Source: a virus (Duplodnaviria > Heunggongvirae > Uroviricota > Caudoviricetes). From it: a DNA stretch of 64,000 bases. The stretch lies in IMG/VR virus record IMGVR_UViG_3300042922_000270; one strand, given 5' to 3'. Of this stretch, positions 3,876-4,391 are shown in pieces (position 1 is the stretch's first letter; every line of letters starts with the position of its first letter). Below the pieces are notes generated by a model. The model saw nothing but the letters and a program-made list of their open reading frames with translations. It did not search any database and had not been told where the DNA came from. The translations under genes were made by a program, and so were the position numbers.

Positions 3876-4391
3876 TTAATGTTTGTTCTCATAATACTCT
3901 TGTGCAACCTGCACAAACTCGGAACTGACATCACAGATAGTAATGTCAAAGTCATCTTTATATTGTTGAAGGATGTTAACCATCTTAATAGCAACATCCT
4001 TTTTGGAGAGTCCACCCACACCCGTGCCCAAAGCAGGGAAAGCAATAGACTTGACTCCTAGGGATCTGGCTAACTTAATAGAGCTTAGAAGAGCACTACT
4101 AATAATTTCCATCCCCTCGTGTTCATAGCCACGATAGCTGGTACCAGGATACATCATAGTTACAGCATGAATGATATAACTAGCATCAAGGTCACCAGCA
4201 GTAGTAAAGTAAGCGCTACCATCAGGCATCATGGTACGACAGGCTTCACGAGCCTCTTTGTCGACTTCAGGGCCACCGGCACGTCTAATAGCACCGGCCA
4301 CACCTGAACCCATGATACCAACACCGTTGGCAGCATTAACGATAGCATCCACCTGGAGAGTAGTGATATCTTCTCTAACGATATTTAGCAT
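3876..4391 (-). CDS. Macro domain protein (ADP-ribose binding / ADP-ribosyl hydrolase)
   Basis: VDAIVNAANGVGIMGSGVAGAI... IIHAVT... SIAFPALGTGVGG are canonical macrodomain motifs; start trimmed to the internal ATG at 4391 (MLNIVRED...) so it no longer overlaps the upstream gene. Confidence 0.8.
   Translation of the reverse strand: MLNIVREDITTLQVDAIVNAANGVGIMGSGVAGAIRRAGGPEVDKEAREACRTMMPDGSAYFTTAGDLDASYIIHAVTMMYPGTSYRGYEHEGMEIISSALLSSIKLARSLGVKSIAFPALGTGVGGLSKKDVAIKMVNILQQYKDDFDITICDVSSEFVQVAQEYYENKH

Follow-up and report, generated by a model that had tools for sequence, protein, structure and literature searches.

Does a large uncultured phage that carries both a macrodomain gene and a NADAR gene possess two different enzymes that remove ADP-ribose, as the original prediction proposed, and are these directed against host defenses? 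According to published surveys, 56% of jumbo phages carry Macro and ~48% carry NADAR, with co-occurrence above chance expectation. Their pairing is common in large phages (PMC9503650). A counter-defense role has been established experimentally for both families: phage NADARs of the AdfN type counter DarTG1 (PMC11825919), and the jumbo-phage macrodomain AdfM counters DarTG2 (PMC13309987). Few accessory genes of large phages are commoner than these two, and with such precedents at hand a further pair matters little as it stands. The macro gene analyzed here is real but ordinary, and a large phage with Macro and NADAR follows a well-documented pattern. What is unusual is confined to two aspects, the uncharacterized pocket signature of its macrodomain subfamily and its fixed slot in a replisome cassette of an uncultured phage lineage.

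Identity and class of the macro protein

The locus lies in a window (the whole stretch of DNA that was analyzed) of 64,000 nt, which represents 31% of the genome. The window has a GC content of 45%, nearly all of its ORFs are on the minus strand, and it carries 14 tRNA genes. On the minus strand, the macro ORF begins with an ATG at 4391 and ends with a TAA at 3876-3878. A longer alternative with a TTG start extends to 4493 and would run into the gene upstream. The same 171-aa product is called by JGI on the source contig, a metagenome contig of 208,594 bp (P0001, 100% identity). The features at this locus are as follows.

3876..4391, minus strand: macro gene, stand-alone macrodomain of 171 aa, MacroD-type, TTHA0132-like subfamily (Pfam, PDB search, AF2, Foldseek)
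4396..4401, minus strand: Shine-Dalgarno sequence GAGGTG, 4 nt 5' of the macro ATG, within the end of the upstream ORF (direct sequence reading)
4375..4704, minus strand: ORF upstream of macro, 109 aa (99 aa in the public record), overlapping the macro start by 17 nt (ORF/gene call)
3701..3892, minus strand: small downstream ORF, 63 aa, without an assigned function, sharing 17 nt with the end of macro (gene call in L001; translation)

The upstream ORF was considered as a hidden ADP-ribosyltransferase (ART) or toxin partner and rejected: it has neither a Pfam nor a PHROG match and no detectable similarity to the ORF found at the same position in relatives, so that this is a variable slot.

The assignment of 3876-4391 to the macro domain is borne out. 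The 171-aa protein matches Pfam Macro (PF01661) over residues 18-134 with 103.3 bits against a cut-off of 22 (E=1e-29), a score that, judged on sequence, lies far beyond chance; the outcome named in advance as fatal, no similarity in a profile search, was not what was found. An AF2 model built from an input alignment of 48 relatives reached a pLDDT of 97.5 and a pTM of 0.92. Both quoted motifs are present, the second as FPALGTGVGG, but the first had been slightly misread as GGGVAGAI: the loop-1 motif is GSGVAGAI, inside NAANGVGIMGSGVAGAI.

Searches of solved structures place the protein among MacroD-type macrodomains. In the PDB sequence search, TTHA0132 (2dx6) was first (E=1.8e-24), followed by the PARP14 macrodomain, YmdB (E=1.2e-19), MacroD2 (8e-19) and MacroD1; the DarG macro structures 5m3i and 5m31 and Af1521 were also present, with far lower scores. 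Foldseek comparison of the model with the PDB gave a probability of 1.00 and TM scores of 0.84-0.88 to 2dx6, 5cms and 6y4y. The order of matches was TTHA0132, YmdB, OiMacroD, MacroD2, MacroD1 and PARP14 macrodomain 1 (TM 0.8-0.88), and no DarG or TARG1 structure appeared among the top 50.

The original prediction had left the choice among MacroD, Af1521 and DarG-like subfamilies to profile comparison, which supports MacroD and not DarG. A profile of 48 relatives matches YmdB with a probability of 99.8 (E=9e-28), versus 70 (E=4e-5) for PhiKZ gp104 (AdfM; sequence from PMC13309987). In NCBIfam the best models are those of the PRK00431 MacroD/YmdB group, although no equivalog cut-off is reached (best 110 bits vs 200), and the DarG model NF048014 yields 57.2 bits where 250 are required. 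The PADLOC DarG model does match (E=6.7e-18), but through its generic macro part only (positions 1-144 of 329), and the phage protein consists of the macro domain only, without DarG's DarT-binding C-terminal domain. The best PHROG match is phrog_335, annotated 'phosphatase'. A DarG-like class was rejected on the NF048014 score, the AdfM probability and a Thr at the catalytic Lys position (see below). Since PDB search, Foldseek, profile comparison and NCBIfam agree, the macro protein is, by sequence and modeled fold, a MacroD-type macrodomain of the TTHA0132-like subfamily and not DarG-like. It would therefore not be expected, from its sequence, to reverse thymine-linked ADP-ribosylation of DNA.

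The ADP-ribose pocket

Catalysis by MacroD enzymes is proposed to depend on N27, N30, D40, H44 and Y134 in OiMacroD numbering (PMC5413906), and the roles of these residues have been described (PMC5413906, PMC10221186). The phage protein was aligned with YmdB (E. coli K-12 record), TTHA0132, MacroD2, SARS-CoV-2 Mac1 and Af1521, with the MacroD2, Mac1 and Af1521 sequences checked against the PDB. The five positions correspond as follows.

OiMacroD N27: phage N19, retained
OiMacroD N30: phage N22, retained
OiMacroD D40 (YmdB D35; general-base Asp, helix alpha-1): phage Ala32, replaced
OiMacroD H44 (assisting His): phage Arg36, replaced
OiMacroD Y134 (YmdB Y126, SARS-CoV-2 Mac1 F132; loop-2 aromatic on the distal ribose): phage Gly126, replaced

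Thus, three of the five canonical residues are replaced, and the Gly-rich loops are retained (loop 1, G-x-G-V with G28 and G30; loop 2, G-x-G with G122 and G124). The same pattern is seen across the 120 nearest cluster representatives, where Ala32 is present in 120/120 and Gly126 in 119/120, position 36 is Lys or Arg in most, M79 is found in 116, N22, G28, G30, H75 and G124 are invariant, and N19 and G122 are invariant or nearly so. Where DarG and TARG1 have their catalytic Lys (FPTK; K80 in Thermus aquaticus DarG), a position at which the AdfM Lys also aligns, the phage protein has Thr78 and its nearest relatives have Thr, Ala or Val. Where MacroD has Gly-Pro and DarG its catalytic Lys, the TTHA0132-like subfamily has Thr-Met. 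The invariance of pocket residues among the 120 relatives indicates strong selection on the ADP-ribose pocket, so that ADP-ribose binding by the macro protein, as judged from the alignment, is near certain.

Missing catalytic residues had been named as the finding that would reduce the protein to a binding-only macrodomain, and this holds in part: Asp, His and Tyr are replaced, but both Asn and the Gly loops are kept. Af1521 and TTHA0132 naturally have Ala for the 'catalytic' Asp, and Af1521 is active, as are viral Mac1 domains without the Asp (PMC5413906); its loss is therefore no argument against activity. The loop-2 aromatic is one determinant used to predict mono-ADP-ribosylhydrolase activity (PMC10221186). 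Hydrolase activity of the macro protein is, on its residue pattern, likely.

Comparison with known macrodomains places these replacements in context. TTHA0132 of Thermus thermophilus (PDB 2DX6), the best sequence match and also the best fold match (TM 0.84/0.90, 35% identity), is a stand-alone MacroD-like protein of the same size with the same pocket: NAAN, G-x-G-V-A-G-A-I with Ala for Asp, and G-T-G-V-G-G with Gly for Tyr. It differs in being cellular, 35-42% identical and without the ~8-residue insertion that follows the HAVTM strand of the phage protein. No biochemically characterized member of the TTHA0132-like subfamily was found in the literature, TTHA0132 itself being a structural-genomics entry, and this likeness would lend the phage protein no function. 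The flagged subfamily is very large and its pocket is without three textbook catalytic residues, so that a single activity assay would inform thousands of annotations. The characterized hydrolases YmdB, human MacroD1 and MacroD2 and Oceanobacillus OiMacroD have the same fold (TM 0.82-0.88) and share both Asn residues and the Gly-rich loops, but they have the catalytic or ribose-positioning Asp, His and Tyr (PMC5413906) where the phage protein has Ala32, Arg36 and Gly126. SARS-CoV-2 nsp3 Mac1, alphavirus nsP3 and PARP14 macrodomain 1, which are viral or antiviral-conflict macrodomains that act as counter-defense mono-ADP-ribosylhydrolases, share the V-A-G-A motif without Asp. The viral Mac1 and PARP14 domains are found among the PDB and BFVD matches and are 21-27% identical to the phage protein; they differ in keeping the loop-2 aromatic (GIFG) and in being embedded in polyproteins or PARPs. 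PhiKZ gp104 (AdfM) resembles the phage protein as a stand-alone jumbo-phage macrodomain (~160 aa) tied to the protection of replicating DNA, but it belongs to the ALC1/TARG1/DarG-like class, with the FPTK catalytic Lys, and shares 23% identity over 133 residues (E=1e-5).

The replication cassette and its relatives

The macro gene lies within a set of replication genes, the features of which are listed here from upstream to downstream.

11730..11751, minus strand: strong hairpin resembling a terminator, close to the PolA block on its upstream side (stem of 9 bp with 8 GC pairs, then a T-rich tail)
9175..11229, minus strand: family A DNA polymerase with 3'-5' exonuclease (PolA), head of the cassette (gene call, Pfam; 72-76% identical in relatives)
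5711..6862, minus strand: sliding-clamp-like protein, DNA_pol3_beta N-terminal domain (gene call, Pfam; 73% identical in relatives)
4661..5314, minus strand: conserved 217-aa protein (X217) of unknown function, between the clamp-like and macro genes (50-52% identical in relatives; no Pfam or PHROG match)
2831..3484, minus strand: UDG-superfamily protein, downstream of macro (Pfam UDG, E=2.7e-7; 65-68% identical in relatives)
296..2152, minus strand: SNF2-family helicase, near the end of the cassette (gene call, Pfam)
99..116, minus strand: terminator-like hairpin where ORF 115-303 stops

The two hairpins bracket a block of ~11.6 kb that holds the macro gene. Because of this arrangement, the block is a candidate transcription unit, and the macro and replisome genes appear to be co-transcribed. 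A sigma-70 promoter scan gave fewer matches than were obtained in shuffled sequence.

The order of the cassette is PolA, AAA_28, clamp-like, X217, variable ORF, Macro, small ORF(s), UDG-like, X138 (138 aa) and SNF2. Two related phages, represented by contigs L002 and L007/L008, show the same order with macro in the same slot. Across the three phages, Macro is 49-54% identical, versus 72-76% for PolA, clamp-like and SNF2, a divergence that would be typical of an accessory or arms-race gene. Since macro changes faster and yet is fixed in its slot, it is best read from these comparisons as an accessory gene that is retained but evolves fast, within a variable islet of the cassette, and probably neither as a core component of the replisome nor as one half of a conserved pair with a toxin-like partner. 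Such conserved yet fast-evolving behavior fits a host-interaction role and not a core replication role.

Among deposited phages, relatives are distant. Megablast of 2800-6900 found no match among deposited phages, tblastn with the macro protein gave best matches of ~44% identity or less, and PolA is ~26% identical at most to any deposited phage. Scans of IMG/VR yielded no locus with the macro query, two marginal short matches with PolA and two loci at 44% identity with NADAR. An exact-protein look-up yielded a 57.7-kb Logan contig, which stops 1.3 kb past the window start, and found no record of the last gene in the window. In a metagenome scan, the best match to the BCS1-like ATPase of the window was 36% identical, and the source contig was not among the matches. 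Reassignment of the amber codon, prompted by a tRNA with anticodon CTA, was also considered; TAG ends 20 of the 109 window ORFs, and such reassignment is therefore unsupported in the window.

The NADAR gene and a candidate ADP-ribose-processing pair

The second gene of the predicted pair lies in the tRNA array.

48976..49470, minus strand: NADAR gene, stand-alone, 164 aa, YbiA family, in the tRNA array by the CCA-adding enzyme gene (Pfam, TIGR02464, PDB)

This identification was likewise confirmed, with 111.7 bits to Pfam NADAR (PF08719; cut-off 35.1, E=5e-32) and 106.7 bits to TIGR02464 (cut-off 73.7). A longer ORF from 49533 enters tRNA-Ile (49493-49570), which makes 49470 the sensible start, and the JGI gene call agrees (P0121). 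One small ORF and one tRNA gene separate it from the CCA-adding enzyme gene. The best solved relative is E. coli YbiA (2b3w, E=8e-19). In alignment with YbiA and T4 gp30.3, E36, Q40 and K43 are invariant and the catalytic residues are intact; E36 and K43 are the two residues mutated in T4 AdfN (PMC11825919). The last strand carries Glu115, which is matched by Glu in YbiA and is the mark of that family, whereas DarT1-linked NADARs have Asp and gp30.3-type NADARs His at this position (PMC11125620). Consistent with this, Pfam Phage_30_3 (PF08010) gives 20.1 bits against a cut-off of 36, so that the window NADAR, despite the three residues shared with gp30.3 (AdfN), is not of the gp30.3 type. Its closest metagenomic relatives are ~50% identical, and several of these proteins also contain a fused SLOG-like, DUF4326 or MazG domain, which are viral architectures (PMC9503650).

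Every NADAR subtype tested removes ADP-ribose from guanine (PMC11825919, PMC11125620), and three diverse phage NADARs counter DarTG1 (PMC11825919). The AdfN proteins of Bas32 and Bas60 are phage NADARs known as guanine-ADP-ribose hydrolases that counter DarTG1 (PMC11125620, PMC11825919). However, specificity in vivo differs among NADARs, and anti-DarT1 activity can therefore not be assumed for the window NADAR.

An ART gene was also sought. All 109 window ORFs were scanned with Pfam as concatenated chunks, and PHROGs were applied to macro, NADAR, selected neighboring ORFs and 32 unannotated ORFs of at least 80 aa. By these scans, the window, 31% of the genome, contains no match to ART, DarT, KptA, sirtuin, Nudix, SLOG or 2H families, and the ART gene that the prediction had suggested seeking elsewhere did not emerge in it. 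The neighbors of macro likewise gave no ART match (Pfam, PHROGs), and no DarT gene is adjacent.

Taken as a whole, these observations are best explained by a MacroD-type, TTHA0132-like protein that binds ADP-ribose and acts as a substrate-assisted hydrolase of O-linked ADP-ribose in host interaction, a reading to which we give a probability of roughly 0.55. The reaction would be water-mediated, as in the Asp-less Af1521 and viral Mac1 domains, and the expected substrates would carry ADP-ribose joined via its 1'' position to oxygen; candidates are Glu/Asp-linked protein mono-ADP-ribose, phosphate-end ADP-ribose on RNA or DNA, O-acetyl-ADP-ribose and ADP-ribose-1''-phosphate. The protein would be expressed along with the replication genes and may, for example, neutralize ADP-ribose-based host defenses or toxic ADP-ribose metabolites. 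The unlinked YbiA-family NADAR would add a complementary N-glycosidic activity, taking ADP-ribose off guanine. MacroD-type enzymes take phosphate-end ADP-ribose off RNA and DNA and NADARs do not, while guanine-linked ADP-ribose is removed by NADARs alone, guanine bases being their only target (PMC11833690); this published division of labor would fit the pair in the window. The proposal of two ADP-ribose-removing enzymes thus stands as regards both domain assignments and the processing of ADP-ribose by both families, but is weakened for macro by the replacement of three of its five catalytic residues. A counter-defense role for Macro and NADAR is a reasonable guess by analogy, and the two (macro for O-linked, NADAR for N-linked ADP-ribose) form a candidate pair for studying an uncultured jumbo-phage lineage against ADP-ribosylating defenses.

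Cleavage is questioned if the protein is instead a reader or sponge, which sequesters ADP-ribose-derived molecules or docks on ADP-ribosylated targets. Asp, His and the loop-2 aromatic are all absent, and in PARP and alphavirus macrodomains hydrolase activity is lost along with the aromatic (PMC10221186). Against this, the family shows little or no variation at either NAAN asparagine. Binding-only macrodomains of the macroH2A type usually lack the NAAN asparagine. Moreover, the Asp is dispensable in Af1521 and viral Mac1, and the strictly conserved pocket signature of a large family suggests chemistry and not affinity alone, so that we regard binding without cleavage as improbable. About as improbable is a housekeeping role in RNA repair, in which macro would act as an ADP-ribose-1''-phosphate phosphatase or 5'-phosphate de-ADP-ribosylase for the phage's RNA-repair set and NADAR would clear related by-products. 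The window does encode RlaP, a Pnkp-like kinase/phosphatase/Rnl1 ligase, a second RNA ligase, a CCA-adding enzyme and a cREC_REC cyclic-phosphate domain; the 'phosphatase' annotation of phrog_335, the ADP-ribose-1''-phosphatase activity of the Asp-less Af1521 (PMC5413906), a comparative-genomic link between NADAR and RNA repair (PMC9503650) and the position of the window NADAR beside the CCA-adding enzyme gene also point this way. However, neither KptA/Tpt1 nor a 2H phosphoesterase, which would make the substrate, was found within the window (Pfam, PHROGs), and the macro gene, with its fixed place in the replication cassette, is separated by >20 kb from the genes for RNA repair. In the established pathway, repair by Pnkp and Rnl1 leaves no 2'-phosphate.

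That replication-cassette location would suit an AdfM-like anti-DarT2 factor, which strips thymine-linked ADP-ribose from phage single-stranded DNA at the replication fork in the manner of DarG2 and PhiKZ gp104. Such a role for a jumbo-phage macrodomain exists (PMC13309987), and both the PADLOC DarG match and the presence of 5m3i and 5m31 among the PDB sequence matches could be read in its favor. Sequence and fold are nevertheless far nearer MacroD, as the profile probabilities, the Foldseek top 50 and the NCBIfam DarG score indicate; the family has Thr, Ala or Val for the catalytic Lys, and in the literature found, reversal of thymine-ADP-ribose is described only for ALC1/TARG1-like macrodomains (PMC9411070). 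We consider this role unlikely. The least probable account, and a very improbable one, is that macro limits or reverses modifications made by an ART of the phage itself, in a T4 Alt/Mod-like or toxin-antitoxin-like pairing. ART-Macro and sirtuin-Macro pairs do exist in phages (PMC9503650), and the T4 NADAR gene 30.3 lies ~3 kb from alt, but no ART, sirtuin or DarT family was found within the window (Pfam, PHROGs), and the ORF translationally coupled to macro is not conserved in relatives and thus forms no conserved two-gene module with it. A further, speculative and unlikely reading is that the TTHA0132-like pocket (Ala/Asp, Gly/Tyr, Thr-Met) and the replisome-cassette slot together mark a new class of nucleic-acid de-ADP-ribosylases, acting for example on ADP-ribose attached to phosphate ends or to bases of replicating DNA. 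If true, this class would represent a counter-defense factor distinct from AdfM, AdfN and AdfA/B.

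Lineage-specific expansion of a small-protein family

A single family of small proteins shows a striking lineage-specific expansion: its paralogs account for about 31 of the window's 109 ORFs. Most members are 62–108 aa long, and in a few longer proteins the family domain forms the C-terminal part. Examples are found window-wide, all on the minus strand:

2565-2831 (-), family member
5311-5514 (-), family member
5511-5711 (-), family member
7351-7566 (-), family member
24632-24859 (-), family member
48312-48581 (-), family member
60273-60557 (-), family member

The paralogs share an N-terminal GDLV motif, a central G.I.EV motif and a C-terminus of the form ..LE.vFT[IV]. 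No match to the family was obtained in Pfam or PHROG, and its profile retrieved only 314 matches among 1.84 billion representatives, some of them tandem arrays with up to 14 repeats. The predicted fold (AF2, pLDDT 92) is a five-stranded SH3/KOW-like small barrel, for which the best PDB matches were weak (E~1e-3): Ssl0352/NdhS, PsaE, PetP and NusG KOW.

Genes within and upstream of the replication cassette

Within the minus-strand replication cassette, which runs from PolA to SNF2, one protein without a family match lies between the genes for the sliding-clamp-like protein and the macrodomain. It is present in all three related phages sharing the cassette gene order, at 50–52% identity and with many invariant residues, and is a candidate replisome accessory factor. 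Two genes directly upstream of the cassette, themselves two genes apart, were also recorded; the product of the second contains a long low-complexity linker rich in Gly/Gln/Asp.

4661-5314 (-), 217-aa protein
11766-13205 (-), 479-aa ATPase (phrog_1297)
14079-15794 (-), 571-aa protein with DUF2201 metallopeptidase-like and VWA-like domains

RNA repair and tRNA genes

The window carries an unusually complete set of RNA-repair and tRNA-maintenance genes:

24840-25559, 26594-28837, 38581-39804, 46787-48301 and 54471-55324, RNA-repair/tRNA-maintenance set

It encodes an RlaP nucleotidyltransferase, a Pnkp-like protein of 747 aa in which kinase, metallophosphatase and Rnl1-type ligase are fused, another RNA ligase of the PHA02142 type, and a CCA-adding enzyme that has an HD domain. 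The set also includes a gene with a cREC_REC cyclic-phosphate domain, which overlaps a gene for an Rv2179c-like 3'-5' exoribonuclease. The window also holds 14 tRNA genes, two of which stand out:

44579-44652 (-), tRNA with anticodon CTA, labelled Pyl by ARAGORN, inside the tRNA array at 44.5-64 kb
57956-58044, odd tRNA with anticodon undetermined

The CTA anticodon is of the amber-suppressor type. General reassignment of TAG was considered and is not evident within the window, since TAG is the stop codon of 20 of the 109 ORFs.

Ter-type cluster and other genes

A phage-borne stress-response cluster of the Ter type encodes a ComF-like PRTase, a HAD hydrolase, a DUF475/TerC membrane protein, TerD and a vWA-TerF-like protein. 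Three other genes were also noted, among them one for a BCS1-like ATPase that has many metagenomic relatives (30–36% identity) on large contigs.

30606-33964 and 41492-42250, Ter-type cluster
52817-53683, SPFH/Band 7 protein
56040-56909, translation elongation factor Ts homolog
60808-62004, BCS1-like AAA ATPase
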